Below, in pieces: positions 6,725-33,685 of a stretch of DNA of 59,811 nucleotides (positions within the stretch are counted from its first letter, which is position 1; each line of letters begins with the position of its first letter). This DNA comes from Nitrospinota bacterium (GTDB lineage Bacteria; Nitrospinota; Nitrospinia; UBA9942): NCBI GenBank assembly GCA_016194325.1, contig JACQBS010000026.1, positions 1-59,811 of the forward strand, written 5' to 3'. The notes below the pieces were generated by a model. The model made no database searches and had not been told where the DNA came from. It saw nothing but the letters and a program-made list of their open reading frames with translations. Position numbers and translations under genes: made by a program.

Positions 6725-8483
6725 TTTTAATTTCAGGTATTAGATAATCCTTTACCCTCTCGCCTATATATATGAGTTTATCACTATCATTTATTGAACC
6801 CCTTACGTTAACACCTGTCTTATCTTCTGTCCCTGAGTTTCTTACAAAGACACATCCCCGTAAAGAGTTCGGAGTTAGATTTACCCTCTGCTTATCATAT
6901 ATCGCAATATAAATCATATCTGGCTCCTCATCCCTCACTTTCAAAGATAATTCTACACTATTTTCAAATTTCTCCATACAGATATTTTTTATAAACCTCT
7001 CTAATTTTTTCCATAACTCAGTCCCCTTTGAAAGTCGGGATTTATCAGTTTTATAAATATAAAATGTTTTTTTAAAACCATGCTCAAACGGGCTATGCAG
7101 TTTTTTAAAATAACCCTTAGAATCCGATTTGCTGAGAATGGATTCTGATGCAACAAAGGTATTTATAGCACTCTTTAAGCCGTTTCCGGCAAATACAGAA
7201 ATTTCTTTATTATCTTTAGTCTTCAAATACCCTTCTGTAATATTGTGCCCACTCTCCTCACTCCCTATTGCAAACCTATTTGACGGTTGCATTGCCTCTT
7301 TAAGAAGCCATTTATCTCCAACCCCTGTGATTACAGCTTTAAACCCAATTTTTCCAGCTGCGATGGCAGTATTTATATCGCTCTCTATTGTATTCACATA
7401 TATAGAGCCTTTATACTTTTCCGGAAGCATTTCCATAAGATACATTGCCTGTAAAAATGCAGTCTCGTCCCCTGACAGGACAATTACAGTATCATCAAAG
7501 GGGTTATAATCAATCCTGTAAAACCTGTCTCCATCTGCATCAAATACAGCCCCTGCTACCCTTACCTCCCCCTTCTTTATTTCTTCTCTTTTATCCCTTC
7601 CAGTTTGGAAGATTTTATTTATAGCTTTGTTCTTTTCAAATCTCTTGCCCTCCTCAATCATATCGGATGTAATTAATGATATGCCTTCAAGGGCAACAAC
7701 GCCACAGTCCAGATTTACAGCACCATTGATGTAGTGGCTAACCTCAATTATTTCTTTAAATCCCAATCTCTTGAAAATATCAGCCGCAATCCCTGAAAAA
7801 GAACCGTTAGCCGGGTCAACAATCAAAACGATTTTTGAAAAAATGCCAGATTCCTTAATCCATGAATTTCTTAAATCACAAGAAAATTCAGTAAATACCC
7901 TGACTGCATCATCATGTACATATTCAAGTTCGCCTAAAAATCCCCTCGCAGCAAACCACCCCTCACCTTTCTCCTCTCCCCTGAGGGGAGAGGGTGGAGT
8001 GAGGGGAATTGATGTTTCAAAAAATTTCTTTGTAAGTCTTATATCATCTTCCGGGAAAAATTTCAATCCTGTTGGCTTAAATATTTTAATCCCATTCTGT
8101 CCCTTTGGGTTATGGGATGCAGTAATCATAAATCCGCCCTTTGCACCCTTGTAGAGCATATATATAGGTATTGCAGGTGTAGGGGTTATACCTAAAACTA
8201 CTGCCTTACCGCCTGCCTTTCTGATTCCGCTCACTGCCGCAGATGTAAATTCGCCTTCAATGTCGCGGGGGTCCCACCCGATGATTATATCTTCGCCAAT
8301 ATTCATTTCACCACTTTCTATCAAATTGGTCACATGGCAAAAAGTGTAAAGCTCCATGAACTCTTCAGTAATAAAACCCTTTTCAACAAATGCCTGAAGC
8401 GGTGACATCCCTTTTATGGCAGGGTCAGATGATAATCTTACATCTCTTCTAACACCATCTGTCCCTTGAAGTCTATTAATCAT
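6714..8483 (-). CDS. Alpha-D-phosphohexomutase (phosphoglucosamine mutase-like)
   Basis: 'GTDGVR', catalytic 'ITASHNP', metal loop 'FDADGDR', 'GSEESGH', 'VRNSGTE'; contains an in-frame hairpin insert. Confidence 0.85.
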   Translation of the reverse strand: MINRLQGTDGVRRDVRLSSDPAIKGMSPLQAFVEKGFITEEFMELYTFCHVTNLIESGEMNIGEDIIIGWDPRDIEGEFTSAAVSGIRKAGGKAVVLGITPTPAIPIYMLYKGAKGGFMITASHNPKGQNGIKIFKPTGLKFFPEDDIRLTKKFFETSIPLTPPSPLRGEEKGEGWFAARGFLGELEYVHDDAVRVFTEFSCDLRNSWIKESGIFSKIVLIVDPANGSFSGIAADIFKRLGFKEIIEVSHYINGAVNLDCGVVALEGISLITSDMIEEGKRFEKNKAINKIFQTGRDKREEIKKGEVRVAGAVFDADGDRFYRIDYNPFDDTVIVLSGDETAFLQAMYLMEMLPEKYKGSIYVNTIESDINTAIAAGKIGFKAVITGVGDKWLLKEAMQPSNRFAIGSEESGHNITEGYLKTKDNKEISVFAGNGLKSAINTFVASESILSKSDSKGYFKKLHSPFEHGFKKTFYIYKTDKSRLSKGTELWKKLERFIKNICMEKFENSVELSLKVRDEEPDMIYIAIYDKQRVNLTPNSLRGCVFVRNSGTEDKTGVNVRGSINDSDKLIYIGERVKDYLIPEIKKAV

Positions 8484-8563
8484 AACTGTAGAATTTTATT
8501 TTTCTAATATGTCTTAGAATGAGGAGAGATTCAGAATCGGATGGGCTCATTTAAAAGCGAGAC

Positions 8564-8624
8564 TGAGGTTAAGGTCAAGGTTAAGAAAAACTTAAAATCT
8601 TAACCTCAGCCTAAACCTTAACCT
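8564..8624. repeat. AGGTT(A/G)-hexamer inverted-repeat element
   Basis: TGAGGTTAAGGTCAAGGTTAAG ... CTTAACCTCAGCCTAAACCTTAACCT. Confidence 0.8.
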
Positions 8625-8630
8625 TTTATT

Positions 8631-9233
8631 TTATGCTGTTGGATTTTTTAAAAGTTCATCTATTGTTTTTATGAAATCCTCAGAAGGCTGCTCATACTCT
8701 ATACCATAATAAGTTGTATCATACGGAGCCTGTTTTATATTTCTGATTATTCCCTTAAATGCTACCGGGCTGCTATTTTCATCATACTCAAATGAGAGCT
8801 GGATGTGATTTCCCGCCTTGTATTGAAGCATTGTCATTAATTTGCATCCGCCAAGACTCATGTCCACGATGGTTCCGTCACCAATCTTTTCATTTTTTTC
8901 ATCCATGATTGATGTCCAGTAGGATGTGGATACTCTATGGTGTTTTCTTATAGATACCCCTTCCGTCTTGGCAGGATATTTTATAATAATATTTGGTATC
9001 TTTCTCTTGAGAAGGACCGTATCAATGTTATATGCCATTCCGTCTTCAGCAATAAATTTAACCTTGCATTCAGTATCAGGCATTATATGAACGAGGGTTG
9101 CATCGGGATTGGAGAGTCTGATGGATATGCTTTCGCCTGCCGAAAACTCCATAATAACCCCCTGATATTTCTTTTCAAAAATCTCCACAAGGATACGAAG
9201 CCCTGTATAAAATATCTCTTTAGCCATTATCAA
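8631..9233 (-). CDS. PilZ-domain c-di-GMP receptor (YcgR/flagellar-brake-like)
   Basis: RxxxR ('RKHHR') and DxSxxG ('DMSLGG') motifs after an N-terminal YcgR-like domain. Confidence 0.85.
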   Translation of the reverse strand: MIMAKEIFYTGLRILVEIFEKKYQGVIMEFSAGESISIRLSNPDATLVHIMPDTECKVKFIAEDGMAYNIDTVLLKRKIPNIIIKYPAKTEGVSIRKHHRVSTSYWTSIMDEKNEKIGDGTIVDMSLGGCKLMTMLQYKAGNHIQLSFEYDENSSPVAFKGIIRNIKQAPYDTTYYGIEYEQPSEDFIKTIDELLKNPTA

Positions 9234-9244
9234 TCACTTTTCCC

Positions 9245-9412
9245 CAAATTCCGCTTTAGCGGAATTTAAAATCGCAGATTCATCCTGAAATACTGCGTTA
9301 TCGTCAATTTTGCTCCTCACCGTATTGGTCATATACGGTTGCGTCGCAAAATTGCCTCTTGTCTTTCAGGCGACTTTGCGATTTTACCCAAAATCCTAAA
9401 TCGGATTTTGGG
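9245..9412. repeat. Long multi-stem palindromic intergenic element
   Basis: Nested pairings AAAATCGCA/TGCGATTTT, CCTGAAA/TTTCAGG, CAATTTTGC/GCAAAATTG and ACCGTAT/ATACGGT, with small flanking hairpins. Confidence 0.7.
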
Positions 9413-9535
9413 TTTTTTCTCTTGATTTTAAGACTGTCTTTATGTATTTTAAAGGGGAAATATTTATTTAAATCCCTTAAAACATTTTTGTATGTTACTA
9501 TAAAAGTCAGATAAATAGCAAACTAATTTCAATTT

Positions 9536-10363
9536 ATGTCTACAATTCTTGGGATTATAATTGGCATATCCCTGTTGTTTGTCGCCATTTTTGTAGAAGG
9601 GGGAGGGATTGGATACTTTATAAACCCGGCCTCTATGATGATTGTTATAGGAGGTGTTATTGCAGCCATATTTATCGGCTTCCCCCTGCCGAGGGTAATG
9701 GGAGTATTCAGGGCTGCGGCACAGGCATTCAGGGCTGACATTCAGCAGCCGTCATGGGTCATAGGACTTATCGTGAGGCTTGCCGTCAAGGCGAGACAAC
9801 AGTCTTTATTGGCTCTGGAGGGAGAGGCGGACAGAATTAATAACAGATTCATAAGGCTTGGATTGGAGATGGTTATAGATGGTCAGCCATCGGACTTAAT
9901 ACGGGATGTGTTGGATACAGAGCTTGATGTCCTACAGGTAAGGCATAGAGCCGGCGGACATATATTAAGAACTGCCGCCAAACTTTCACCTGCCTTTGGA
10001 CTTATCGGAACGCTTATAGGACTTATATCTATGCTTCGGAGTCTTGGGGCAGAGGCCGGTATGGGAGGACTTGGCAAAGGCATGGCTATATCTCTTGTAA
10101 GTACCTTTTATGGTGTTATGGGAACCAATCTACTTTTCCTGCCTCTGGCAGAAAAACTCCGTTCAAGGACAGATGATGAAGTTTTAAGAACAAAGATAAT
10201 TACGGAGGGTATCCTGATGCTTCAGGCAGGTGCAAATCCCAGGGTTATAGAGAGGAAACTGAATTCATTCCTACCGCCGGATCTGAGGATGTCCCATTAC
10301 GAAAAAATAATTAAGAAAATGCGGGTAGAAACCAAAACAGAAGGATCTGAAGAATTTGTATAA
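9536..10363 (+). CDS. motA: Flagellar stator MotA/PomA-family protein
   Basis: TM helices, 'LLALE', 'SPAFGLIGTLIGLISML', 'MAISLVSTFYG', 'EGILMLQAGANPRVIERKL'. Confidence 0.9.
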   Translation: MSTILGIIIGISLLFVAIFVEGGGIGYFINPASMMIVIGGVIAAIFIGFPLPRVMGVFRAAAQAFRADIQQPSWVIGLIVRLAVKARQQSLLALEGEADRINNRFIRLGLEMVIDGQPSDLIRDVLDTELDVLQVRHRAGGHILRTAAKLSPAFGLIGTLIGLISMLRSLGAEAGMGGLGKGMAISLVSTFYGVMGTNLLFLPLAEKLRSRTDDEVLRTKIITEGILMLQAGANPRVIERKLNSFLPPDLRMSHYEKIIKKMRVETKTEGSEEFV

Positions 10364-10368
10364 TTACC

Positions 10369-11037
10369 ATGGGGAAAAAAAACTACGATAAAGGCAGAGA
10401 AGACGGTGTAGAGGAAGGATATGAAGATGGAGAAGAGACTGCAATCTGGGCGCTATCATTCAGTGATATGATAATCCAGTTGATGGTCTTTTTTGTCCTT
10501 TTATTATCTATATCAGTTCCAAATGCAGAGCAATTTAATGCGGTGATGGAGCAGCTTCAGTCAAAATTTAAAAAGACGGTTGAACCCACAAAATTAGAGG
10601 CAGTTCAGGAACAGATAGAGAAGCTAATAGTTGATGAAAATCTTTCAAAGGATGTGCATTTAACATCAGATACGAGGGGTATAGTCCTCTTTGCAAGCGG
10701 CGACCTTTTTTTTAAATCAGGAGAGTCAGAACTGAATGCTGAAATAAAATATTTCCTTGATAATATCAATGACACAATAAAGGATGTCCCTTATAAATTG
10801 CTTGTAGAGGGGCATACTGATGATACCCCAATCAAAACGGAGAGATTTCCGTCAAACTGGGAACTGTCATCTGCCCGTGCGAGCAGTGTTGTGAAATACT
10901 TTATTGAAAAAGGGGTTGCACCTGTCAGACTTTCGGCTGTAGGGTATGCCGAGTATAAACCAAGGTTTCCAAAGACACCCGAAAACCGCCCCAAAAATAG
11001 GAGGGTGGAGATAGTTATATTGAGGGAAAGGGTGTGA
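10369..11037 (+). CDS. motB: Flagellar stator MotB-family protein (OmpA-like peptidoglycan-binding domain)
   Basis: 'WALSFSDMIIQLMVFFVLL' with the conserved Asp; 'VEGHTDD', 'SNWELSSARA', 'NRRVEI'. Confidence 0.9.
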   Translation: MGKKNYDKGREDGVEEGYEDGEETAIWALSFSDMIIQLMVFFVLLLSISVPNAEQFNAVMEQLQSKFKKTVEPTKLEAVQEQIEKLIVDENLSKDVHLTSDTRGIVLFASGDLFFKSGESELNAEIKYFLDNINDTIKDVPYKLLVEGHTDDTPIKTERFPSNWELSSARASSVVKYFIEKGVAPVRLSAVGYAEYKPRFPKTPENRPKNRRVEIVILRERV

Positions 11038-11632: not shown

Positions 11633-11638
11633 AGGAAA

Positions 11639-13894
11639 TTATAAAGAAGTGTCAGTGACACTGACACTGACATTTTCAAGGGTTTGTTCTTTTATCTTTT
11701 TCAAAAGGGTGATATTCTCCGTGTGTCCAGTCATCCTTGCAGTTATCCGCCCCTTTATCTGTTTTCCAAGGAGATAAAAATCCCCGATTATATCAAGAAT
11801 CTTGTGCCTGACAAATTCATTATCAAATCTTAATTGTGTATTTATTACCTTCTCATTATCCACTAAGATTACATTACTCAATTTGCCGCCGCTCCCCAAT
11901 CCCATCTCCTCTAATTTCTCATAGTCTTTTATGAATGCAAATGTCCTTGCCGGGGCAATCTCATTTTTAAAAGATTTTTCACCATCTGCTACAAATGTAT
12001 AATCCAATCGTCCTATCGGAGGTGGATAATCCATTGAATAATTTACAGTAAACTTTTCAGAAGGCTCTATGTAGATATACCTGCCCGTTGAGATATCGCC
12101 AACCATATATTTTTTATCTATGACCATTTCATTTGCTATTTCATCCTGCTCTTCTATCCCCCCATCTTCAATCAACTGACAAAAATCAGCGGCAGAGCCG
12201 TCCATTATTGGCACCTCATCTCCTATCTTTATGAGTAGATTTGTAATGCCATACATGTGGAGAACTGCCATGATATGTTCTACAGTCTTTACAGAAGTCA
12301 TTCCATTCTTAAGCGTAGTGGCGTAATCTGTTGATTGAACATATTCTAAATTAGCAGGGACTGTTTCTCCGGATGATATATCACCAAATATTATTCCGCT
12401 GTTGGATGGCAGAGGTGAGAGGATTAAACCTGTTTTCAAGCCTGAATGCAGCCCCTGTCCGCACAAGACCACACTCTGCTTAAGTGTCTTTTGGAGAATT
12501 GTTTCCCTGTAAATATCGGCATCCTTTTGCAGACTGTCTTTTTCGCCCACGGGTATATTGAGTCTTTTTAATTTTCTGATCAGACTTATCCTGTCTGTGT
12601 TTAAGGCTGCTGCAGTTTTTGAAATATCAAAGTTATATTTTTCAAGATGATGGATAATAAATTCTTTCTCCCACGCCTTCTCAGCCTCTTCCATAGAACT
12701 ATAGCCGTCAAACCATGCCGACCTGCTCCTCACTGAAATAACAGGAATTGCAGTAGATACATCTTTTACTGATATAATATTCCCCTGTGCAGTCATTACT
12801 ATATGCTCAATAACATTCTTTAATTCTTTTGCATTCCCCTGCCAGCTGAAGTTTGTAAATATATCCATTGCATCGTCATCAATCTTTTCAATTCTCTTAT
12901 TATATTCATTGCTGAAATATTTGATGAAGTATCTTACAAGTTCAGGTATGTCTTCTCTCCTCTCCTTCAGGGAAGGAAGATTTATTGTTGCTTCATTGAG
13001 GAGATTTAAAAGCCCATCTTTAAACTTGCCCTTCTTGACCTCCTCTCTCAGGACTTGATTTGAGGATGCTATGACCCTTGCATGGAAGGGGATAAAACCC
13101 CTCCCCCCCTTTCTTTTATATTTTTTCTCTCTCAATACTTTTATTAATTTATTCTGGAGTTTTATGCTGAGCCCTTCTATATCGTCAAGAAAGAGGGTTC
13201 CATCTTCTGCCTGTTCAAATTTACCTTTCTTAATGAAGGCATCTTTTCTATTTCCGACTTTTATGCCAAAGAGAAACTCTTCTGCCTCATCCTCTTTTAT
13301 GGCAGAACAGTTTACCCTTATAAATGGGACATCTTTCTTAAGACCTTGAATATGTATCAGCCGTGCAATAAATTCCTTTCCTGTCCCCCTCTCCCCACTG
13401 ATGATTACATTTTTACGGCTGTTAGATGATGCCTTGACCAGCTTTTTTACCTCTGCAATAACATCGCTGTTACCTACAATTTCTTCTACTTCAGTGTTTA
13501 ATGTGATTATGAATTCTTTGGCAGGTTTTTTATGCTCAAATGCTGCCCTGACTGTTGAAATTACATTATCCAGTGACAGAGGTTTTTCTATAAAATCAAA
13601 TGCCCCAAGTTTTGTCGCCCTTACAGCGGTTTCTATAGTGCCATGTCCTGACATCATGATTACATCTAAATCAGACCGCAGCATCTTTATCGTCTTGAGG
13701 GTCTGGATACCGTCAAGCCCTGGTATCCATATATCAAGAAGGACAAGGTCAGGGGATTTAGATTTAATTATTTTCAATGCCTCTGAGCCGTCCTTTGCCT
13801 TTGATACAGAGAAGCCCTCATCTGCTAATATGCCTTCCAGGGAGGAAAGTATATTCTCTTCATCATCTACAACCAATATATGACCTTTGTCCAT
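11639..13894 (-). CDS. lpxC: NtrX-like response regulator (REC-AAA+-HTH) fused to UDP-3-O-acyl-GlcNAc deacetylase LpxC
   Basis: REC 'LLDIW...SGHG...EKP'; AAA+ 'GERGTGKE'; Fis-type HTH; then LpxC 'QKTL...GQGLHSG', 'TVEHIM', 'EIAPARTF', 'HKILDIIGD' in one reading frame. Confidence 0.88.
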   Translation of the reverse strand: MDKGHILVVDDEENILSSLEGILADEGFSVSKAKDGSEALKIIKSKSPDLVLLDIWIPGLDGIQTLKTIKMLRSDLDVIMMSGHGTIETAVRATKLGAFDFIEKPLSLDNVISTVRAAFEHKKPAKEFIITLNTEVEEIVGNSDVIAEVKKLVKASSNSRKNVIISGERGTGKEFIARLIHIQGLKKDVPFIRVNCSAIKEDEAEEFLFGIKVGNRKDAFIKKGKFEQAEDGTLFLDDIEGLSIKLQNKLIKVLREKKYKRKGGRGFIPFHARVIASSNQVLREEVKKGKFKDGLLNLLNEATINLPSLKERREDIPELVRYFIKYFSNEYNKRIEKIDDDAMDIFTNFSWQGNAKELKNVIEHIVMTAQGNIISVKDVSTAIPVISVRSRSAWFDGYSSMEEAEKAWEKEFIIHHLEKYNFDISKTAAALNTDRISLIRKLKRLNIPVGEKDSLQKDADIYRETILQKTLKQSVVLCGQGLHSGLKTGLILSPLPSNSGIIFGDISSGETVPANLEYVQSTDYATTLKNGMTSVKTVEHIMAVLHMYGITNLLIKIGDEVPIMDGSAADFCQLIEDGGIEEQDEIANEMVIDKKYMVGDISTGRYIYIEPSEKFTVNYSMDYPPPIGRLDYTFVADGEKSFKNEIAPARTFAFIKDYEKLEEMGLGSGGKLSNVILVDNEKVINTQLRFDNEFVRHKILDIIGDFYLLGKQIKGRITARMTGHTENITLLKKIKEQTLENVSVSVTDTSL

Positions 13895-13903
13895 AGTAAC
13901 AGC

Positions 13904-13970
13904 AGGTTAAGGTTGAGGTTAAGGTTTAGATTTTAGATTTTTTTCTTAACCTCGACCTTGACCTTAACCT
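13904..13970. repeat. AGGTT(A/G)-hexamer inverted-repeat element
   Basis: AGGTTAAGGTTGAGGTTAAGGTT ... CTTAACCTCGACCTTGACCTTAACCT between the ntrY-like and ntrX-lpxC genes. Confidence 0.8.
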
Positions 13971-13977
13971 ATATTTT

Positions 13978-16206
13978 TCATGCCGGCAGTTCAATTATAA
14001 AATTTGCACCTCTCGGCTGATTATCCTCAATTCTTATGATTCCACTATGGTCTACCACTATTCTATTTGCAATGGCAAGCCCCAGCCCTGACCCTTTTTT
14101 CTTTGTGGAAAAATATGGCAGGAACAGCTTATCCTTATTCTCATCAGGTATGCCTATACCATTATCCTTCACTTCAATCCTTACCGTTTTACCATCCTTT
14201 GTTAGAGATGTATCAATTTCTATAATCCCGTTACCATGCACTGCATCTATAGAATTTTCTATAAGATTTATGAATACCCGTTTGAACTGCTCATGGTCTA
14301 CATTTATTATATCTATTTTTGAATCATAGTTGGTTAAAAACTTTATCCCCTTCCTTATATCTTTGTAAAGGGCAAGCGTGTCATCTATAATGCGGTGGAG
14401 TTTGTAAGGCTTTGGATTAGGCTCAGGCATACGAGCGAACTTGGAAAATTCATCAATCAGCTTTTTAAGCCCCTCAACCTCTTGAATAATTACATTCGTG
14501 CTTTCATCAAATACCTCTATAAAATCTGGAGAACCCTCCTTAAACTTCTTTTTCAATCTCTGTGTATTCAACTGGATTGGCGTAAGGGGATTTTTTATTT
14601 CGTGTGCTATACCCCTTGCAACCTCCCGCCAGGCAGCGGTTTTCTGGGCCTTTATGAGTTCTGTCAGGTCATCAAATACTATTACTATGCCAAGGTATTT
14701 CCCCTCTGTATTTTTTAAGGCAGTTGCATTTACAAGGAGGGTAATTAATCTCCCTGATACCATAATCTGAATCTGGCCGTTTACACTCTCCCTTCTCGCC
14801 TCGTTCATGACTTTTATCATTGCCCTTACAGGGTCTAAATATGATGCATCAAATGCCTTTTTATACGGCTCTCCTTTAACCTTTTTCGCCTGAATATTTA
14901 ATATCTTTGATGCAGCTTCATTTATGGTAGAGACCCTCCCGTGGCTGTCAACGGAGATTACACCTGTGGCGATATTTTCCAATACAGTTTCCATGTAGCC
15001 CTTCCTCTGCTCCAGCTCGATGTTGGTCTCTTTTAATTCCTCATTTGCCTTTTCTATTGCAAGCTTCCCTTCTTTTAGATCAGAGGTCATCTGATTAAAT
15101 GATTCCACCAGCATTCCTATTTCATCATTTGCCTTGGCAGTAATTTTAAAATCTAAATTTCCCTCTGCTACCGACTTGGTTGCCTCAGCCAATTCCTTTA
15201 TTGGAACTGTTATACCCTTAGCCAGATAGAAACCAAACCATATTGCCGAGAATAGTATCAAAAGCGTAATAAGAAGAAGTGTTATCTCGTAGCTCAGTTT
15301 TATTGGATATTTGAGGAGTTTTAGCTGTTTGTATTCCTCAAAGGCATTCACAATATTCTCAATCTTACTAACCATATCCTTTGAAATGAACCAGGAGACA
15401 ACTGTTATGCCGGCTATATTCTGACTGCCGGCAGCAGACTGCTGAGAGATTTTTATAGGAGATACCCCGACTACGAGATTTTTTTTGTCTATCAATATAA
15501 TCTCCGATACATCTTCCCCGCTCAATGCCTTTTCAAGTAATGGGTTTAATTTTTCATTGAGTATCTTCTCTTTAAGGGCAGATTCTATGGATTCAGCAAC
15601 AAGATTTAGATTGCTGTCAAAGACAAGTATTCCGTCAACTTTGTAATCAACCCTCTTTTTAAGGACACTATTTTTAAGATACTGGAGATTTTCTTTATTG
15701 ACCATGTTCTTCTCTGAAATGAGTTCATTCAGCATGTTTGCATACAGGAGTATATTTTTTCCCGAGCCTGCATAATAACCCTCCGCGACATCTAAAGAAC
15801 CTTTCAGGGAGTTTTCTATCTGTTGATTGAACCAGTTATTTATACTGTTTGTAAGGAGTCCGCTGGCTACCAAAAACAGAAGAAGAGAGGGGACGAATGT
15901 AAGGACTGCAAATGACAAAACTAATTTTGTCCTGAACCTTGCACCGATAATTTTCCATTTTCTATCTAAATATAGTTTTACCAGATTTTTGCCTACTATC
16001 AGCACCAATACAGATAGGAGGATTATGTTTATATTGACAAGGAGCAGAACTGCAATATTGCTGGCAATCGGGGTTGATACATGAGACTGCTGTATATATA
16101 CTTCTACTGAAGTTAAGACAATAAGGAGCAGAAGGATACCGAATACTATCCAACGTGTTCTTTTCCTTTTTTTTCTGATGTATTCGTCAGAAAGACGGTA
16201 ATCCAT
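13978..16206 (-). CDS. ntrY: NtrY-family sensor histidine kinase (HAMP-PAS-HisKA-HATPase)
   Basis: Multi-TM N-terminus, HAMP 'DEIGMLVESFNQMT', H-box 'AHEIKNPLTPIQL', N-box 'NLIENSIDA', G-boxes 'DNGIG' and 'GSGLGL'. Confidence 0.88.
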   Translation of the reverse strand: MDYRLSDEYIRKKRKRTRWIVFGILLLLIVLTSVEVYIQQSHVSTPIASNIAVLLLVNINIILLSVLVLIVGKNLVKLYLDRKWKIIGARFRTKLVLSFAVLTFVPSLLLFLVASGLLTNSINNWFNQQIENSLKGSLDVAEGYYAGSGKNILLYANMLNELISEKNMVNKENLQYLKNSVLKKRVDYKVDGILVFDSNLNLVAESIESALKEKILNEKLNPLLEKALSGEDVSEIILIDKKNLVVGVSPIKISQQSAAGSQNIAGITVVSWFISKDMVSKIENIVNAFEEYKQLKLLKYPIKLSYEITLLLITLLILFSAIWFGFYLAKGITVPIKELAEATKSVAEGNLDFKITAKANDEIGMLVESFNQMTSDLKEGKLAIEKANEELKETNIELEQRKGYMETVLENIATGVISVDSHGRVSTINEAASKILNIQAKKVKGEPYKKAFDASYLDPVRAMIKVMNEARRESVNGQIQIMVSGRLITLLVNATALKNTEGKYLGIVIVFDDLTELIKAQKTAAWREVARGIAHEIKNPLTPIQLNTQRLKKKFKEGSPDFIEVFDESTNVIIQEVEGLKKLIDEFSKFARMPEPNPKPYKLHRIIDDTLALYKDIRKGIKFLTNYDSKIDIINVDHEQFKRVFINLIENSIDAVHGNGIIEIDTSLTKDGKTVRIEVKDNGIGIPDENKDKLFLPYFSTKKKGSGLGLAIANRIVVDHSGIIRIEDNQPRGANFIIELPA

Positions 16207-18138: not shown

Positions 18139-18158
18139 TTAACCTCCATATTAATAAG

Positions 18159-18222
18159 AGGCTAAGGTTTAGGTTGAGGTTAAGTTTTAATCTTTCTTAA
18201 CCTTGACCTTAACCTTAACCTT
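18159..18222. repeat. AGGTT(A/G)-hexamer inverted-repeat element abutting the mutS stop codon
   Basis: AGGCTAAGGTTTAGGTTGAGGTTAAG ... CTTAACCTTGACCTTAACCTTAACCT. Confidence 0.8.
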
Positions 18223-18225
18223 TTG

Positions 18226-20811
18226 TCATAACAGGTGCATCTGTTTAACAGGAGGCTCTTTTATGCCTGACTTTTTTGTCAGCCTCGGTTTCCCCCCTTC
18301 ATCAAACTCTTTATTTTCCAGATTGGTGAGAACCTCTCTTGCCCTTTCTATGATCTCTTTAGGCAGTCCGGCAAGTCTTGCCACCTGAATCCCGTAACTC
18401 TTATCCGCCCCTCCCACTGCAATTTTTCTTAAAAATATTATCTCATCATTCCATTCCTTTACGGCAATATTATAATTTTTTACACTATCAAGTGTCATTG
18501 ATAGCTCAGTAAGCTCATGGTAGTGAGTGGCAAAGAGGGTCTTTGCCTTTGTATTATTGTGTATATATTCCACCACAGACCATGCGATACTTATTCCATC
18601 AAATGTGCTTGTCCCCCTACCAATCTCATCAAGTATTATAAGACTTCTTTGTGTAGCATTATTTAAGATATTGGCTGTCTCATTCATCTCAACCATGAAT
18701 GTGCTCTGCCCCTTTTGCAGATAATCCTGTGCCCCGACCCTTGTGAATATCCTGTCAACAATGCCAATCCTTGCCTCCCTTGCAGGGACAAAAGAGCCTG
18801 TCTGGCTCAAAAGGACAATCAGTGCCACCTGTCTCATATATGTAGATTTGCCTGCCATATTGGGCCCTGTAATTATCATGATTTGATTGTCAGTATTATC
18901 AAGACAGGTATCATTTGGGACAAATCTTTCGCCCTCAATTATCCTTTCTAATATAGGGTGTCTTCCATCTACTATCTCAATAGTATCACCCTCATTTATA
19001 TCCGGGCAGATATAATCGTATCTACTGGCAGTCTCAGATAATGTAGATAATACATCAATCTCCGATATTATCCCGGCCATCTTCAGTATCCTCTTTGCCT
19101 CTTCTGCAATCTTTTTCCTTATATCTTCAAAAATCTGATACTCTATATTCTTAATCTTTTCCTCTGCACCAAGTATCTTATCCTCATATTCCTTGAGTTC
19201 CTGAGATATATACCTCTCTCCTGTTGCCACAGTCTGCTTCCTTACATAGCCTTCGGGAACTTTTGATAAATGTTTCTTTGTTATCTCTATAAAATATCCG
19301 AATACCTTGTTATAACTAACCTTGAGATTGGCAATTCCTGTCCTCTCCCTCTCCCTTACCTCCATCCGGACAATCCAGTCTTTACCATCCCTGCTAATAC
19401 TCCTTAATTCATCCAGTTCCTTACTATAACCATCCTTGATTAGCCCTCCATCCTTCAGAGACAGGGGAGGTTCATCTTTAATTGAAATATCTATAAGCTT
19501 CTCAATATCAGTGAGGTCATCCCATTTTGAAAGCATCTCTTTGAATATTTCGGAAGGAGTTTTTTCTAAGAGTCCATTTATAGTTTCTATAGGGGCAATA
19601 GAATTTTTTAGGGCAATCAGGTCCCTCGCATTTGCAGCAGAGAGGGTAATGCGGGCGGTAAGCCTCTCCATATCAAGTATCTTGCTCAGATTATTTCTAA
19701 TCTCTTCCCTTGTCCTGTGAGAGTCTTTCAGTTTGCCTACTGTATCATGTCTCGTTTTAATTTTATTTGCATTAAGGAGAGGTTTTAAGAGCCATTCCTT
19801 CAGCCTCCTCCCCCCCATTGATGTAACAGTTAAATCTAATAGTCCCAATAGAGACCCCTCTTTTGAGCCATCATAACTTCTTCTTGTCAATTCAAGGTTT
19901 CTCTGTGTGGAGAAATCAAGATTCATGTATTCATCAGACTTTAAAAGCGATATGCGGTAGAGATGTGTAAGAGGGGACTTTTGTGTCGCCTTAAAATAAT
20001 AGATTGCAGCACCTGCGGCAGATACAGCAAGGGGCATATTCTCGCATCCAAAGCCATCAAGGGAGGCTGTCTTAAACTGTGATAGGAGTGTCTTATATGC
20101 ATAATCATAATCATAAACCCAATCCTCGCATGAATTGACAGCAGCAGAGAGCTCATTTTTTAAGAGATGGAGTAATCCCCCCATCCCCCCTTTATCAAAG
20201 GGGGGTGAAGGGGGATTGAAACTTTTAGGGACAAGAATCTCTTTCGGTTCCAATTTGAGAAACTCATTTTTAATGATTTTTATAATATTTTCTTCTGAAT
20301 TTTCTTGCCCCTTACCCATTGCCTCTTGCCCCTCATTTTTAAATTCCGCTACCCTGAAATCTCCTGTGGATATATCAATTACTGCAATGCCATATCCATT
20401 TTGGTCAGGATATAGGCTTACAAAAAAGTTGTTATCCTTATCACCGAGCAGATTGGGATTTAAAACAGTCCCGGGTGTAATGACTCTTATCACCTCTCTC
20501 TTTACAACACCCTTTACAGTCTTTGGGTCTTCCATCTGCTCGCATACTGCAACCTTAAAGCCTTTTCTTATCAAGCGGCCTATATAAATATCAACTGCAT
20601 GGTGAGGGACTCCGCACATTGGGACAGGATTCTCTTTGTTTTTATCACGGGATGTAAGTGTGATATTGAGGGCTTTGGATGCAGTTATTGCGTCATCAAA
20701 AAACATCTCATAAAAATCACCAATGCGAAAAAAGAGTATGGAATCAGGATAATCCCCCTTTATATTCTGATACTGCTTCATCGCAGGGGTGGTCTCGTTT
20801 TTCATAATCAT
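18226..20811 (-). CDS. mutS: DNA mismatch repair protein MutS
   Basis: 'TPAMKQY', 'GDFYEMFFDDA', Walker A 'GPNMAGKSTY', 'DEIGRGTSTFDG', 'FATHYHEL', 'SYGIQVARLAGLP'. Confidence 0.98.
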   Translation of the reverse strand: MIMKNETTPAMKQYQNIKGDYPDSILFFRIGDFYEMFFDDAITASKALNITLTSRDKNKENPVPMCGVPHHAVDIYIGRLIRKGFKVAVCEQMEDPKTVKGVVKREVIRVITPGTVLNPNLLGDKDNNFFVSLYPDQNGYGIAVIDISTGDFRVAEFKNEGQEAMGKGQENSEENIIKIIKNEFLKLEPKEILVPKSFNPPSPPFDKGGMGGLLHLLKNELSAAVNSCEDWVYDYDYAYKTLLSQFKTASLDGFGCENMPLAVSAAGAAIYYFKATQKSPLTHLYRISLLKSDEYMNLDFSTQRNLELTRRSYDGSKEGSLLGLLDLTVTSMGGRRLKEWLLKPLLNANKIKTRHDTVGKLKDSHRTREEIRNNLSKILDMERLTARITLSAANARDLIALKNSIAPIETINGLLEKTPSEIFKEMLSKWDDLTDIEKLIDISIKDEPPLSLKDGGLIKDGYSKELDELRSISRDGKDWIVRMEVRERERTGIANLKVSYNKVFGYFIEITKKHLSKVPEGYVRKQTVATGERYISQELKEYEDKILGAEEKIKNIEYQIFEDIRKKIAEEAKRILKMAGIISEIDVLSTLSETASRYDYICPDINEGDTIEIVDGRHPILERIIEGERFVPNDTCLDNTDNQIMIITGPNMAGKSTYMRQVALIVLLSQTGSFVPAREARIGIVDRIFTRVGAQDYLQKGQSTFMVEMNETANILNNATQRSLIILDEIGRGTSTFDGISIAWSVVEYIHNNTKAKTLFATHYHELTELSMTLDSVKNYNIAVKEWNDEIIFLRKIAVGGADKSYGIQVARLAGLPKEIIERAREVLTNLENKEFDEGGKPRLTKKSGIKEPPVKQMHLL

Positions 20812-20901: not shown

Positions 20902-21195
20902 GTGAAGCATATAAATTGGAACACAGAAAAGAGCCTGAAACTCAAAGAATCAAGAGGAATATGCTTTGAGGATATTGTTTATCATATTGAAAAAGGCGAC
21001 ATTTTGGATGACTATTTACATCCAAATCAGAAGAGGTCTCCAGAACAACGGATAATGGTAATCAGAATAAATAATTATGCATACCTTGTTCCTTATGTCG
21101 AAGATGCGGAAGAAATATTTCTAAAAACCATTATCCCCAGTAGAAAGGCAACAGACATTTATTTAGGAGGAAAAAATGAAAACCAAATTAACTAA
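20902..21195 (+). CDS. BrnT-like toxin
   Basis: 'INWNTEKSLKLKESRGICFEDIV...HPNQ...YAYLVPYVE...FLKTIIPSRKAT'; GTG start; overlaps its partner. Confidence 0.8.
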   Translation: MKHINWNTEKSLKLKESRGICFEDIVYHIEKGDILDDYLHPNQKRSPEQRIMVIRINNYAYLVPYVEDAEEIFLKTIIPSRKATDIYLGGKNENQIN

Positions 21196-21454
21196 AGAAG
21201 AACAAAAAATATTAGATAGCTTTGAAAAGGACGAATGGGTTCCTGTAAAAAACCTTTCAAAAAGGAAAGCAGAACTAATGAGATATGCAAGAAATACTTT
21301 AAAAAAAGATAAAAGACTAAACATAAGAATTTCAGAAAGAGACCTAACTGAATTGCAAAAAAAGGCAGTAAATGAGGGATTGCCTTATCAGACATATGTT
21401 TCCAGCATAATTCATAAATTTGTTAGTGGTAAGCTAATAGAAGCAAAAAATTAA
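21176..21454 (+). CDS. Antitoxin partner (BrnA/CopG-like, ribbon-helix-helix C-terminus)
   Basis: 'RLNIRISERDL...KAVNEGLPYQTYVSSIIHKF'. Confidence 0.8.
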   Translation: MKTKLTKEEQKILDSFEKDEWVPVKNLSKRKAELMRYARNTLKKDKRLNIRISERDLTELQKKAVNEGLPYQTYVSSIIHKFVSGKLIEAKN

Positions 21455-21811: not shown

Positions 21812-22024
21812 ATAACTTATTCTACCTTCGCTTCGCTCAGGGAGAACAAGGAGTTCAAGACCAATACGCCCCTACGGGGCTACGGCTTAACTCCGCATTC
21901 TCCCTCGCTCCGCGAGGGAGAACGCGGGGCTGAGCCATGGTGCCCCATCCCTTCGCTTCGCTCGGGAGAACCAGGGGCACGAAACCAATGACCCTACGGG
22001 TCATGGCTCAGCCCCGCGTTATAT
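21812..22024. repeat. GC-rich multi-hairpin element with CTTCGCTTCGCTC motifs
   Basis: Perfect 18-bp inverted repeat AACGCGGGGCTGAGCCAT (21921-21938)/ATGGCTCAGCCCCGCGTT (22003-22020), several small hairpins and two CCTTCGCTTCGCTC copies. Confidence 0.7.
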
Positions 22025-25034: not shown

Positions 25035-26111
25035 ATGCAAAAGATTAATTTAAAAAACCTCTCCCTTCAGGAGATAGAAGGTCTTGTAGAATCTCTCGGA
25101 GAGAAACCATACAGAGCCCGCCAAATTTATGAATGGGTATTTCAGAAGGATGTGAGTGATATTGGAGAGATGACAAATCTCTCCCTAAATCTTAGAGAGC
25201 AGTTAAACAAACCAGCCTATATATCCCGCCTCTCTATTGCCAATAAAAGAACTTCATCTGACGGCACATCAAAATATCTTTTTTTATTGGAGGATGGTAA
25301 TAGTATAGAGAGTGTCCTCATTCCTGATGAAGACAGGCTCACATTATGTATATCCACACAGGTTGGATGTAAATTAGGCTGTGCATTCTGTCTTACAGGG
25401 AAGAGTGGGTTTGTCAGGAATCTAAGTCAATCTGAGATAATAGAGCAGATTCTTTCTGTCCAGAGAGAAATTCGACCTCCCCTTTCTTCCCTCCTTACGA
25501 AGGAGGGGAATGGGGTGGTAGGGGATATAACAAATATAGTTCTCATGGGGATGGGTGAGCCGCTTGATAATTACGAAAATATAATAAAATCCATAAAAAC
25601 CATGATATCCCCTAATGGATTAAAGATACCTGCAAGAAGAATAACCCTATCCACATCGGGGCTAATTCCTGAAATTAAAAAACTCGCAAAAGAGAACCTT
25701 AAAATAAATCTGGCAATCTCCCTTAATGCATCAGATAATGAGACAAGAGATAAAATCATGCCTGTAAATAAAAAATATCCAATTGAAGAATTGCTTGAGG
25801 CATTAAAAGAATATCCCCTTCCGCCTAATAGGAGGATTACCTTTGAGTATGTTATTATAAAGGGGTTAAATGATTCTATTGAGGATGCAAAAAGGCTTTC
25901 AAATATACTTAAGAATATAAAATGTAAGATTAACCTCATTCCATTTAATAGCTTTGAAGGGTCAGATTATGAGACCCCTGACTATAAAAATGTTGAGGAG
26001 TTTCAAAATTTTCTTATTTCAAGACATTATACTGCTATTATAAGAAAAAGTAAGGGGGCTGATATATGTGCCGCCTGTGGACAACTGAGGAGCAAAAGAT
26101 TAGAAGGTTGA
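25035..26111 (+). CDS. rlmN: 23S rRNA/tRNA m2A methyltransferase RlmN
   Basis: Radical SAM 'CISTQVGCKLGCAFC', 'MGMGEPL', 'ACGQL'. Confidence 0.97.
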   Translation: MQKINLKNLSLQEIEGLVESLGEKPYRARQIYEWVFQKDVSDIGEMTNLSLNLREQLNKPAYISRLSIANKRTSSDGTSKYLFLLEDGNSIESVLIPDEDRLTLCISTQVGCKLGCAFCLTGKSGFVRNLSQSEIIEQILSVQREIRPPLSSLLTKEGNGVVGDITNIVLMGMGEPLDNYENIIKSIKTMISPNGLKIPARRITLSTSGLIPEIKKLAKENLKINLAISLNASDNETRDKIMPVNKKYPIEELLEALKEYPLPPNRRITFEYVIIKGLNDSIEDAKRLSNILKNIKCKINLIPFNSFEGSDYETPDYKNVEEFQNFLISRHYTAIIRKSKGADICAACGQLRSKRLEG

Positions 26112-26903: not shown

Positions 26904-26917
26904 CAGATTTTAATACC

Positions 26918-31022: not shown

Positions 31023-31045
31023 CTATTAACCTCCAAAAAAAAATC

Positions 31046-31119
31046 AGCCACGAATGAATACGAATTAACACTAAATTATATGGTAAATCATCGTATCTGA
31101 TTCGTGTAAATTCGTGGCT
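31046..31119. repeat. CACGAAT-family inverted-repeat element
   Basis: AGCCACGAAT ... ATTCGTGGCT, perfect 10-bp ends. Confidence 0.85.
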
Positions 31120-31138
31120 AATAAGTTTCTGTTTTGAC

Positions 31139-32434
31139 TTATAATGCTACATCAAACCCGACTGTAATCTTACTCCCATCTATACTCTTCTGTTCACCGC
31201 CGACGGTGTATTTGTCTTTATATTTATTATCCTGAAAATCCCACAGGGATTTAAAAGTTATCCGTGCATTCTGGGTGACATACCATGCGCCCTCAACTGC
31301 AAAATCAGCGTTTTTATTTGAATCTGTCCCGCCATCTTTTTCTGTGAGTGTCTCATAAATTGCACCGAATTGAAAAGATTCACTAAGGCGTAAAAGCCCC
31401 TCCATCATAAAACCGGTTGATTCCCTTTTTGTCCCGATTCCTGTTGATGAAACATCGCTCTGGGATACGGTGTCATAAAGAAAATCTAAGTCAAATCTCT
31501 GTGATGAATACCTGATACCCGCCACCCATTCTCCCACATCATTCCTGTATTTTCTATTACCTGTTGTCCCTCCAAATCCCTGAGGATTGGCGAAGTATCT
31601 GACAGAGGCAGCAACTGCCCCAAAATCCCCCCTCAACATCCCTGTATAGGCGGTGTTTGGGTCATTATCATTATCGGCACTTCCGCCATTACCCTGATTT
31701 ACGGCGAGCTCATAGGTAAAATAACCAAACCCGGGACGTCCGTAAAGACTAATTCCAAGGTCATTACTGCCTGCCCTGCCTGTATTGTATCCTGAGCTTG
31801 CCGAAGGATTGTTTCCGCTGCTCCAGTTCATAGGCATCGGGATAAGAGACTTGCCGCTTATAACCCGCCTTGTGCTGTGGACAGCATCAAGGTCAGAACT
31901 CATAAGCGAGCCAAATCTGATATTAAAATTACCAGGGCCCCATATATTATGAAAACCTAAAAACATTGAGTCGGTTATGCGGCCTGTAATCTTATCCTGC
32001 GATGACCCTTGAGGAAGTTCAAACCAGTAAGAAACATTTTTTGTAAGTGTCCCCCCTCCAATAATATTGCCAGCCATTTCACCGGATGAGAGCAGCCCCC
32101 CCGCCTGTTCATTCTCACCAGCAGTTGTATGTGTTGTCCTGCTTAAATAGGTTCTGCCCTCTAATCTCAGGCTAAACGGCGGGAATGTAGCAGGGTTATC
32201 CAATGGTAGGTCTTCGGCAATCTTTATCTTGCCTGCCTCTCCCCCGCTTTCTGTATCAGGCAGTTGATAGCCATTGAGCATATAATTAAATCCAAACTCA
32301 TTCAGCCTTGGCCAAGTGGAATGGCAGAGCATACAGGCGATCTCATGTTTTCTAGCAAACCCCGGTTGCGCATCTGCAGGTTTATATGCCACCGCAATAA
32401 ATGATATACCGATGAAAATAATTAATAAAAGCAT
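31139..32434 (-). CDS. Cyc2-like fused monoheme cytochrome c / outer-membrane beta-barrel
   Basis: Signal peptide, then 'PGFARKHEIACMLCHSTWPRLNEFG...NGY' (single CxxCH) and alternating beta-strand patterns. Start is uncertain (32434 or 32491) because repeats overlap it. Confidence 0.7.
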   Translation of the reverse strand: MLLLIIFIGISFIAVAYKPADAQPGFARKHEIACMLCHSTWPRLNEFGFNYMLNGYQLPDTESGGEAGKIKIAEDLPLDNPATFPPFSLRLEGRTYLSRTTHTTAGENEQAGGLLSSGEMAGNIIGGGTLTKNVSYWFELPQGSSQDKITGRITDSMFLGFHNIWGPGNFNIRFGSLMSSDLDAVHSTRRVISGKSLIPMPMNWSSGNNPSASSGYNTGRAGSNDLGISLYGRPGFGYFTYELAVNQGNGGSADNDNDPNTAYTGMLRGDFGAVAASVRYFANPQGFGGTTGNRKYRNDVGEWVAGIRYSSQRFDLDFLYDTVSQSDVSSTGIGTKRESTGFMMEGLLRLSESFQFGAIYETLTEKDGGTDSNKNADFAVEGAWYVTQNARITFKSLWDFQDNKYKDKYTVGGEQKSIDGSKITVGFDVAL

Positions 32435-32491
32435 CCTGAGCTTGTCGAAGGATGCATGGTTCGACTTTTCGACAAGCTCAAAGCTCACCAT
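32432..32491. repeat. CCTGAGCTTGTCGAAGG / TTCGACAAGCTCA-family hairpin repeats
   Basis: CATCCTGAGCTTGTCGAAGGATG followed by TGGTTCGACTTTTCGACAAGCTCAAAGCTCACCAT. Confidence 0.8.
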
Positions 32492-32513
32492 GCTTGCCTT
32501 CGGGCTTACCACT

Positions 32514-32792
32514 TTACTTTCTCGACTTTGAGTATTCAATCAATTTCTCCCATTCGCCATTAATTAAAGCCTCTTTCTTCTTTCTTGTCCATCCTTTTAT
32601 TTGCCTTTCCCTGAGAAATGCGTCATGAATTGTTGGCATTTCACAATAATAAACCAATTTTACAGGCAATCTCTTTGCTGTATAGCCATCAAACATTTTA
32701 GTGTTATGTTCAGCTAATCGTTTTTCTAAATTTTTAGCAGAGCCAGTATAGTATGACCCGTCAGCACATTTCAATATGTATAACCATGTCAT
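32514..32792 (-). CDS. GIY-YIG nuclease (YhbQ/UPF0213-like)
   Basis: 'WLYILKCADGSYYTGS...RLAEHN...YT..RLPVKLVY...RERQIKGWTRKKKEALI'; start moved to ATG 32792. Confidence 0.92.
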   Translation of the reverse strand: MTWLYILKCADGSYYTGSAKNLEKRLAEHNTKMFDGYTAKRLPVKLVYYCEMPTIHDAFLRERQIKGWTRKKKEALINGEWEKLIEYSKSRK

Positions 32793-32800
32793 TATTATTG

Positions 32801-32823
32801 CATCCTGAGCTTGTCGAAGGATC
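32801..32823. repeat. CCTGAGCTTGTCGAAGG-family repeat upstream of the GIY-YIG gene
   Basis: CATCCTGAGCTTGTCGAAGGATC, matching the copy at 32432. Confidence 0.8.
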
Positions 32824-33685
32824 ACTCCTTCTCCATATTCATCTCAAGTTCTGTTTTTTGTCCTTTCCTTATAGATACCTTTTCCTTTTTCTCCTTAAAG
32901 CTCTCAAGCTTTACAGTTACATCATATATACCTGATTCAATATCAACACTCAGCGGCGATAGTCCAAAGTATATGTCGCCAATATATATCTTGGAGCGGG
33001 GAGGCTCTGTCTTTATGGAAATTCTCCCTGCCCCTTCAGGAATTGGTGTTTCTTCTGCAGATGCAGTCCCTGCCTTTCCAAAATTTTTATTTATCTCTAT
33101 AATTGTTTTATTAATAACCTTTGCAAGTGTCTTTGAGATATATGAATTGATTGTCTTCTTGGAATTACCAGAGACCCCTGCAAACCTATCTTCTTTTTCT
33201 GTTATTACACCCTCCCATATGCCCTTCCCTGTTTTACCTGATATTAACCTGCTTTCAATCTCAATTTCTATTTCGTCTCTTCCCTTTATATCAAGCCTGA
33301 ATTTTTTTATCTCCCCGCTCATTATTATATCCGCCTGACCTCCCCCCTCTCCTCCTTCTAAAGGAGGGGATGAAGGGATGGTAACAATAAAACCGGCAGA
33401 AGTTAGATGTGTCTTAATAGCTTCATTAACAGATATAGCAACATCCTTTTCCAAAATAATTTTATCGGCATGCATATCAGTAACAGTTGACTCAATTTTT
33501 CCAACATAGTTTGGGGCGACATCTCCCCTTGAATCAATATATGGTTTAAGGATGATGGTTAGGGGTTTAGTGGCTTTTGATGTATCAGGGATTTGTCCGG
33601 GCTTATAGTTAAGCTTAACCGCCCCTGAACAGCCTGTTATAAATAGGAATAGTAAGAAAGGAAGGGAATAGCGGGTTATTGTCAT
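32822..33685 (-). CDS. Lipoprotein with a C-terminal PEGA domain
   Basis: Lipobox 'ITGC'; C-terminal 'ISIKTEPPRSKIYIGDIYFGLSPL...GIYDVTVKLESF' PEGA pattern. Confidence 0.8.
   Translation of the reverse strand: MTITRYSLPFLLFLFITGCSGAVKLNYKPGQIPDTSKATKPLTIILKPYIDSRGDVAPNYVGKIESTVTDMHADKIILEKDVAISVNEAIKTHLTSAGFIVTIPSSPPLEGGEGGGQADIIMSGEIKKFRLDIKGRDEIEIEIESRLISGKTGKGIWEGVITEKEDRFAGVSGNSKKTINSYISKTLAKVINKTIIEINKNFGKAGTASAEETPIPEGAGRISIKTEPPRSKIYIGDIYFGLSPLSVDIESGIYDVTVKLESFKEKKEKVSIRKGQKTELEMNMEKE

Follow-up and report, generated by a model that had tools for sequence, protein, structure and literature searches.

The stretch of DNA analysed here (the window, 59,811 nt) is contig C60 of a groundwater Nitrospinota metagenome-assembled genome (MAG; G000, 3.12 Mb, 39% G+C, 175 contigs, 90%-complete). 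Four of its protein-coding genes, for a PGM/PMM-family mutase, MutS, RlmN and a PEGA-domain lipoprotein, each contain a short hairpin-forming palindrome in frame. These elements, their counterparts in other genomes and the way in which they may spread are described below. The genes and the elements within them are:

6714-8483, minus strand: PGM/PMM-family mutase (Pfam PF02878 at residues 31-156, and PF02880), with the insert just after domain I
7959-8006, minus strand: mutase element, a four-block palindrome of family A (BoxC/TMECO-like)
18226-20811, minus strand: MutS (Pfam MutS domains I-V)
20174-20217, minus strand: MutS element, a family B palindrome, AATCCCCC(C) nnn CCCCCCTTT nnn AAAGGGGGG nn GGGGGGATT
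25035-26111, plus strand: RlmN, a radical-SAM 23S rRNA/tRNA methyltransferase (Pfam; match to PDB 3rf9, E = 5e-81)
25475-25519, plus strand: RlmN element, a family C palindrome, ACCTCCCC tttctt CCCTCCTT acg AAGGAGGG gaatg GGGTGGT
32822-33685, minus strand: PEGA-domain lipoprotein (Pfam PF08308)
33338-33382, minus strand: PEGA lipoprotein element, a worn family C palindrome, plus strand ACCTCCCCCCTCTCCTCCTTCTAAAGGAGGGGATGAAGGGATGGT

All four elements are 44-48 nt long and each folds as a two-stem hairpin: the outer stem has 7-8 bp and is followed by an internal loop, and the inner stem, of 8-10 bp, closes on a tip loop of 3 nt. The DNA folding energies (dG) are -10.6 to -17.8 kcal/mol and the fold z-scores are -3.2 (mutase), -3.6 (MutS), -3.3 (RlmN) and -1.9 (PEGA, the worn copy and the weakest). 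The coding strand of the mutase element is CCCCTCAC TCCAC CCTCTCCCC TCA GGGGAGAGG AGAAAG GTGAGGGG, giving the peptide PLTPPSPLRGEEKGEG. The MutS element reads NPPSPPFDKGGMGG, within domain II (connector), and the RlmN element reads (R)PPLSSLLTKEGNGVV, the residues spanning the insert junctions being EIRPPLSSLLTK / EGNGVVGDITNIVLMGMGEPLDNYENIIK. The PEGA peptide is IPSSPPLEGGEGGG, given also as PSSPPLEGGEGG. From the intact reading frames we infer that all four inserts are translated in their host proteins. The peptides run from Pro to Gly because C-runs precede G-runs on either strand of a palindrome.

A first-pass annotation of the window had reported four related hairpins, each encoding a Pro-rich then Gly-rich peptide and keeping the frame. 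Sequences, peptides and frame are confirmed at all four sites, the PEGA copy being slightly wider than first described (33338-33382). The elements are related in their common architecture; in sequence they fall into three families, the mutase copy belonging to A, the MutS copy to B and those of RlmN and the PEGA lipoprotein to C.

Insertions and hot spots in protein loops

Each host protein was compared with 30 relatives. Three of these genomes (G001-G003) are congeneric with G000, and G002 is the closest (~95% amino-acid identity). As the segments are absent from most orthologues, they are insertions or replacements relative to these and not ancestral loops. The MutS element is absent in 18 of 18 relatives whose MutS covers the site; the G002 contig ends short of it. 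In G001 and G003 (91% identical) the site is occupied by ~20 nt of unlike sequence, leaving G000 with a net gain of 24 nt. This insert is in a poorly conserved part of connector domain II, in a region unalignable to E. coli MutS. The RlmN element, absent in every class-level relative, adds a net 48 nt relative to G001, G003 and G004 and 45 nt relative to G006. The mutase element is common to G000 and G002 and absent in G001, G003, G004, G005 and G006 (net +45 nt), and the PEGA element is likewise common to G000 and G002, with none in G005. The alignments thus bear out the expectation that the segments are insertions, or replacements, which change length by multiples of 3 nt.

The AlphaFold2 (AF2) model of RlmN has a mean pLDDT of 86.9 and a pTM of 0.87, with a pLDDT below 50 at the insert (residues 150-162). 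The insert occupies the loop that joins helix 132-146 to strand 167-170 and immediately precedes the GGEP strand; in E. coli RlmN, too, the loop at this place is longer and gapped. The insert is predicted to be a disordered surface loop, and the surface-loop location foreseen in the first-pass annotation was therefore borne out for RlmN, the sole site modelled. The suggestion that the hairpins add protein loops to housekeeping enzymes is right in so far as they are inserted in frame; it falls short in that several sites have had resident sequence, or another repeat, replaced.

The same protein loops are occupied repeatedly by different hairpin repeats in different lineages. Among 47 metagenomic RlmN homologues there are three internal hot spots, after residues 85, 148 and 306, and the family C insert was found in six close variants. 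Site 148 holds family C in G000, a hairpin with tandem GAGGGAC arms in G007, other sequence in G005 and nothing in four other relatives. In G002 (L028, G002:C341) the same site is taken by an unrelated palindrome of the CGCAATGAC type, 37 residues long (GATTGCTTTGTCACTTCGTTCCTCGCAATGAC...GTCATTGCGAGCCAAAGGCGAAGCAATC) and read RLLCHFVPRNDTTASTVIASQRRSNL. Nitrospirota RlmN proteins (55-58% identical) have independent inserts at site 148. A family B element is found at the mutase site in G007, and the PEGA site carries family B in G007 and a family A-like half element in G004.

Other palindromes also occur in the window. ComEC (open reading frame (ORF) 40165-42705, plus strand) is a fifth case of a reused site and contains in-frame palindromes of the GTCCTGACCCTGAACTTGATTCAGGA and GCAGGCTTCAGCCTGC types at ~41345-41440, with the peptide ILNQVQGQDSFKPSPLSPSVAAGFSLREFF. 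The ComEC site in G002 holds a C-first G/C hairpin, the total length including flanks being equal (179 vs 179 nt). Another hairpin family, with tandem-heptamer arms AGGTTAAGGTTGAGGTTAAG / CTTAACCTCGACCTTGACCT, is found at 8566-8618, 13904-13964 and 18156-18224. Its copies are intergenic; they lie close to an end of the mutase or MutS ORF, or in the gap that separates ORF 11639-13894 from ORF 13978-16206. The palindrome GTTCTCCCTCGC-nnn-GCGAGGGAGAAC, with a conserved flank GGCTCAGCCCCGCG, has at least six copies in G000 (window 21884-21936, C32:11809, C32:12485, C40:10081, C124:6498 and C133:4951). The two copies on C32 bracket a 165-residue ORF, and the window copy adjoins a BrnT/CopG-like toxin-antitoxin pair (20902-21454; Pfam scores of both below curated cut-offs).

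Families, distribution and turnover of the hairpins

The hairpins belong to at least five families (A-E) of one design: C outer arm, C inner arm, loop, G inner arm, G outer arm.

Family A: CCCCTCACC..CCTCTCCCC nnn GGGGAGAGG..GGTGAGGGG (mutase copy)
Family B: AATCCCCCC..CCCCCCTTT nnn AAAGGGGGG..GGGGGGATT (MutS copy)
Family C: ACCTCCCC..CCCCTCCTT nnn AAGGAGGGG..GGGGAGGT (RlmN and PEGA copies)
Family D: AACAACCCCCT..CCCCCTT nnnn AAGGGGG..AGGGGGTTGTT
Family E: CCCTCCCC/GGGGAGGG types

The copy number in G000 is ~130-200, depending on the rule, and the window hairpins are far beyond chance. A scan of the whole assembly for a perfect 7-bp inner stem, pyrimidine then purine, gave 150 hairpins against 5 of opposite polarity. 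With a 9-bp stem and at most one mismatch there were 131 C-arm-first and 5 G-first hairpins, and under this rule the window holds exactly the four sites. A degenerate inner-stem pattern had 79 matches compared with 2 for the reversed control. A looser rule yielded 196 hairpins, with both outer blocks in 63, one in 78 and none in 55. The bias in polarity is general: the C-rich arm comes first 20- to 100-fold more often than the G-rich arm in most repeat-rich genomes (G000 and 46 others). This strict C-first polarity is accounted for by neither the hairpin nor the triplex model.

Far from being limited to four proteins, as first described, the repeats have ~90 genic copies in G000, and ~63-71% of all copies lie within long ORFs. 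The count of intragenic and intergenic copies that the first-pass annotation called for differs between families. The genic share is 34/40 (85%) for family B, 18/22 (82%) for C, 22/42 (52%) for A and 12/22 for D, compared with 84% for random positions. Families B and C are at the random level and thus not depleted from genes; the same repeat class is mostly genic in some lineages. All three codon phases are used genome-wide, the rarest being the one in which the tip loop contains a stop codon, and the genic variants seen have only 3n length changes with an open frame. The middle segments of family B pair in 51% of cases, compared with 41% in shuffles, and are perfectly paired in 10 of 57 copies. 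Fold-back synthesis, considered on the basis of covariation in these middle segments, was rejected because the pairing excess is too modest. At C81:28985-29080 of G000, three tandem family A units spaced 36-39 nt apart lie in one 553-residue ORF (SSPMKGE...PSPFMGEGQ...SSPLRGEGQGEG).

BoxC/PIT repeats have been on record in E. coli from the 1990s onwards, with no account of where they come from, how they spread or what they do. The consensus of the E. coli BoxC/PIT/TMECO repeat is CCCTCNCCC N3-6 GGGNGAGGG N3 GGGNGAGGG (Holder et al. 2015, PMC4666352). TMECO, an intrastrand triplex motif, consists of a pyrimidine block, a complementary purine block after a loop of 3-6 nt and a third purine block mirroring the second (G set against G, and A or T against A); it is known in palindromic form as well (PMC4666352), and it is this form to which the present elements correspond. 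The E. coli repeat is reported to be always intergenic in strain K-12 and widespread in prokaryotes, with variable flanks and no link to mobile elements (PMC4666352). This consensus is matched by family A only (the mutase element), and not by families B and C (MutS, RlmN, PEGA). BLAST aligned a perfect family A copy (from contig C165, not the mutase copy) over 50 nt with 84% identity to unannotated intergenic sites, in 5402 of 5426 E. coli genomes, and one family A copy has a 23-nt identical string in common with E. coli loci. The E. coli BoxC site between wcaJ and cpsG reads ACCCCTCACCCTAACCCTCTCCCCTGTGGGGAGAGGGCTGGGGTGAGCGG. Judged by the matches to E. coli together with the consensus, family A is the BoxC/PIT/TMECO repeat of that species.

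The block logic extends further. Mirrored blocks can be picked out by eye in families A (GGGGAGAGG/GGTGAGGGG), B (AAAGGGGGG/GGGGGGATT) and C (AAGGAGGGG/GGGGAGGT), and the four window elements score 6-8/8 under the mirror rule for both outer blocks (for the mutase element, 7/8 for the outer C block, Co, and 8/8 for the outer G block, Go). In families B, C and D the outer G block mirrors the inner one with A replaced by T, a feature that is weakly diagnostic for G-runs.

The exact family B architecture (30 fixed bases) was found on at least 118 contigs from at least 12 phyla. The taxa include Nitrospirota, Nitrospinota, Methylomirabilota, anammox Planctomycetota, Desulfobacterota/Syntrophales, Chloroflexota, Gamma- and Betaproteobacteria, Elusimicrobia, Omnitrophota and Poribacteria, and the G+C content of the contigs ranges from 30 to 69%. 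Family B is also present in 12 IMG/VR viral contigs. Given this range, and the identity of family A with the E. coli repeat, the view that the window elements form an independent family has to be abandoned. Of the copies from other contigs, 38/85 are in long open frames (among the matches listed). The degenerate pattern has 0-249 copies in 31 class-level genomes, closed ones included (reversed-polarity control 0-4), and 7-240 copies in 16 genomes of other phyla (controls 0-13).

When ORFs within 1.5 kb of 118 family B loci from other phyla were clustered, no transposase recurred. Genes for UvrA (7 loci) and IleRS (4 loci) did recur among the matches listed and are read as permissive hosts. UvrA is the neighbour or the host of family B in these 7/118 loci, with copies immediately before and after uvrA at L173. 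The uvrA pattern echoes a report that intragenic repetitive extragenic palindromes (REPs) favour repair genes (PMC3733652). A larger arrangement, [C outer + hairpin] - 21-nt AT-rich palindromic spacer - [hairpin + G outer], is found at L280-L288 of G033, a MAG of 31% G+C labelled Hyphomicrobiales. There the family B blocks are embedded in a larger dispersed repeat with the ends CAATGACATC...GATGTCATTG and many copies per genome.

Turnover was followed by comparing 505 kb of G002 at orthologous sites, and it is fast between these genomes of ~95% identity. Of the 16 G000 copies whose flanks are both present there, G002 retains 5, has another repeat in place of 4 and lacks 7; 7/17 G002 copies are conserved in G000. 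Net length differences within genes are 18, 72, 36, 72, 51, 78, 48, 57, 33, 42 and 33 nt, all multiples of three (for the 78-nt difference the alignment gave 79, its edge being shifted by one base). Between genes the differences are 68, 113, 43 and 68 nt. In one polymorphism a truncated B copy of ~34 nt, with a nearby 1-nt change, gives a net difference of +33 nt; its flanks are 98.7-99.7% identical, indicating recent turnover.

The tip loop of a resident hairpin is a clear insertion target. At C149:1899 G002 has a B-like element alone, in whose tip loop G000 carries a complete family C element (+51 nt). Four further B[C] composites were found in G000, and two of the RlmN hot spots hold B in one homologue and B[C] or B[other] in a close one. 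Nesting at hairpin tips, followed by decay, would explain how the occupant of one site changes. Around family B, A at -1 and T at +1 are conserved but indistinguishable from the palindrome itself, the borders being (A/T)A-ATCCCCC...GGGGGAT-T(T/A). A purine-rich microhomology target (GAAAAGG-like) was rejected as inconsistent across sites.

Spread of the hairpins and the DUF559 genes

In relatives of G000, hairpins of this type accompany genes for DUF559 (PF04480), a Vsr-like PD-(D/E)XK candidate nuclease. At the best 12 DUF559 loci in relatives, a gene of ~110-150 residues has C-first hairpins within ~100 nt, on both sides in 8 cases and on one side in 4. Another 30 loci come from 13 genomes of other phyla; hairpins flank 20 of them on both sides, 9 on one side and 1 on neither, so that hairpins lie near 41/42 DUF559 loci overall. 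The arrangement is nearly always left [inner hairpin + G outer arm] - gene - right [C outer arm + inner hairpin]; the flanks are inverted copies of a three-block unit with the third block facing the gene. The loci from other phyla have the same orientation, one of them being a clear exception, and include hairpins of every family from A to E. The left end of the G003 locus (CCCCCTTTGGAAAAGGGGGATTAAGGGGGATTTT) closely resembles the solo family B copies of G000. No paper on a link between DUF559 and palindromes was found in a literature search.

The hairpins probably form a superfamily of ~40-50 nt non-autonomous G/C-rich palindromic repeats of the BoxC class, selfish or neutral, retained where protein loops admit them and spread by a route that seems to depend on DUF559. 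Selection would filter copies of what is in effect selfish or neutral DNA, leaving those located in flexible surface loops, which, to judge from their frames, would be translated as disordered Pro/Gly segments. Their spread would depend on cassettes in which half-elements serve as inverted terminal repeats of the candidate nuclease gene, an arrangement analogous to that of REP-associated tyrosine transposase (RAYT) genes flanked by REPs. The analogy suggests, but does not prove, a partnership with DUF559 of the REP/RAYT kind. A broader proposal is put forward more tentatively: DUF559 nucleases may be the mobilising partners of BoxC/PIT repeats in at least a dozen phyla, a REP/RAYT-like system with a different enzyme fold, whose orphan palindromes would favour hairpin tips as insertion sites and would serve essential proteins such as RlmN, MutS and ComEC as exchangeable Pro/Gly loop cassettes.

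Several observations weigh against dependence on DUF559 and the BoxC-class assignment. No PF04480 match was found in the 90%-complete G000 assembly, so its copies would be orphans or be served by an unassembled gene, and E. coli, examined as a control, has BoxC and no DUF559. A search of G000 for the cassette ([hairpin+G arm] ... [C arm+hairpin]) gave one pair, with no nuclease between the arms, and BLAST of the relatives' loci against G000 gave no clean case of an empty site. Copy number is weakly related to the number of DUF559 genes among 31 relatives (Spearman rho 0.30, p = 0.10). Solo elements are ordered C outer - hairpin - G outer, the order of joined ends and not that of internal deletion; the joined-ends order is also seen, unmerged, in a composite repeat of another MAG. 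'Empty' alleles mostly hold 3-30 nt of unrelated sequence, so elements often replace resident sequence and do not simply insert. No consistent target-site duplication or target motif emerged from ~16 filled/empty pairs and the flank profiles. Finally, the mirror rule is clear for families A and C, but genome-wide 141 of 196 hairpins obey it compared with 119 for a direct-repeat control, a small excess attributable to the G-runs.

The main rival needs no dedicated enzyme. A hairpin or triplex would stall replication and lead to template switching, slippage and gene conversion, and DUF559 genes would merely accumulate at such sites. The lack of a consistent target-site duplication, the fuzzy borders, the replacement of resident nucleotides, the half and truncated copies and the insertion at hairpin tips all fit this mechanism, as does C20:24611, where the near flanks are locally diverged and the outer flanks are 97-98% identical. 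E. coli TMECO sites have raised flank variability and block polymerase in vitro (PMC4666352), and copies without DUF559 occur in G000, G029 and E. coli. However, structure-induced template switching gives no account of near-identical elements of 42-45 nt in at least 12 phyla, nor of hairpins at 41/42 DUF559 loci, mostly in one fixed inverted orientation. It is possible but rather unlikely, and the DUF559-dependent route is the best-supported candidate for spread.

Less probable still is retention of the inserts because they are useful, as flexible Pro/Gly linkers or as mRNA or DNA structures tuning translation, stability or recombination. Such a role would agree with the undepleted genic shares of families B and C, with the occupation of the same loops in several lineages and phyla, and with the Shine-Dalgarno (SD)-like 3' arm of family C (AAGGAGG), which is paired with an anti-SD-like arm. 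Against it, sister genomes have wholly different sequences and peptides at one and the same site and many close relatives lack an occupant altogether, copies are read in all three phases, and they decay by stem-breaking point mutations. The RlmN insert, moreover, is predicted to be disordered.

Mobilisation as REP/REPIN elements by RAYT, an IS200-like Y1 HUH transposase, is disfavoured and would be surprising. The hairpins are like REPs in size, form and the presence of several families per genome, REPs have been reported inside DNA-repair genes (PMC3733652), and G000 has two PF01797 matches. Yet there is no GTAG or CGTC tag, the termini being (A/T)AATCCCC, ACCTCC, CCCCTCAC and AACAACCCC. Both Y1 genes of G000 are flanked by other sequences and not by C/G-run hairpins, and the complete genomes G016, G019, G029 and G030 hold 11-51 copies with no Y1_Tnp match; a RAYT/IS200 mobiliser was rejected on these grounds. 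An assembly artefact, or ancestral variable loops merely resembling palindromes, might be suspected in a MAG of 175 contigs and is refuted by G002, an independent assembly in which the same copies recur with substitutions, by the families in closed genomes and E. coli and by the orthologues without the segments.

The tie to DUF559 across phyla provides a concrete candidate for how BoxC-class repeats may move. The occupied sites amount to a natural inventory of the places at which loops of conserved enzymes can take up 15-30 additional residues, three of them in RlmN alone. For annotation, the repeats would explain many Pro/Gly-rich 'insertions' and spurious small ORFs in MAGs.

Comparison with known repeat systems

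No paper on these in-frame elements was found in a literature search, and the nearest known system is BoxC/PIT/TMECO. The hairpins resemble it in block design, the existence of a palindromic form, a dispersed and widespread distribution, variable flanks and the absence of an associated transposase. They differ in location: E. coli K-12 copies are reported to be always intergenic, whereas 52-85% of copies here are genic and in frame, and 22/42 family A copies and 4/4 window copies are in ORFs. Families B, C and D also have other block sequences, and the DUF559 link, the nesting at hairpin tips and the swapping at hot spots are absent from PMC4666352.

Rickettsia palindromic elements (RPEs) are ~100-150 bp palindromic repeats (RPE-1 to RPE-10) confined to Rickettsia (PMC10969869, PMC3733652). 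The first-pass annotation had cited them as a precedent for palindromes within coding sequence, and for function the parallel is a fair one. Both sets comprise several palindromic families without a transposase of their own, inserted in frame in unrelated housekeeping genes in a way compatible with the fold. The present elements are set apart by description, being G/C-rich, two-stemmed, 40-50 nt long (44-48 nt in the window), found in a Nitrospinota host and across phyla, and read as Pro/Gly-rich peptides predicted to be disordered.

The REP/REPIN-RAYT systems (Di Nocera et al. 2013, PMC3733652) are likewise short hairpin repeats of many families, some copies of which lie in repair genes. A gene flanked by inverted repeat copies is common to both, with DUF559 here in place of RAYT. 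However, the present repeats have no GTAG/CGTC tag and no correlation with Y1 transposases, most copies are genic, and the flanked gene, often present in several copies, encodes a PD-(D/E)XK nuclease. Families B and C are unlike classical REPs in not being depleted from genes.

Intragenic MITEs (transposable elements of the miniature inverted-repeat type), such as Coxiella QMITE1, ERIC/RU and cyanobacterial MITEs (PMC10969869, PMC2759123), are also non-autonomous and can form in-frame fusions. The terminal sequences of a MITE are those of a gene-carrying parent, and the inverted half-elements at DUF559 loci correspond to such termini, with no parent copy in G000. In contrast to the 40-50 nt hairpins, MITEs are 70-300 bp long with terminal inverted repeats and, usually, target-site duplications, of which no consistent case was found here.

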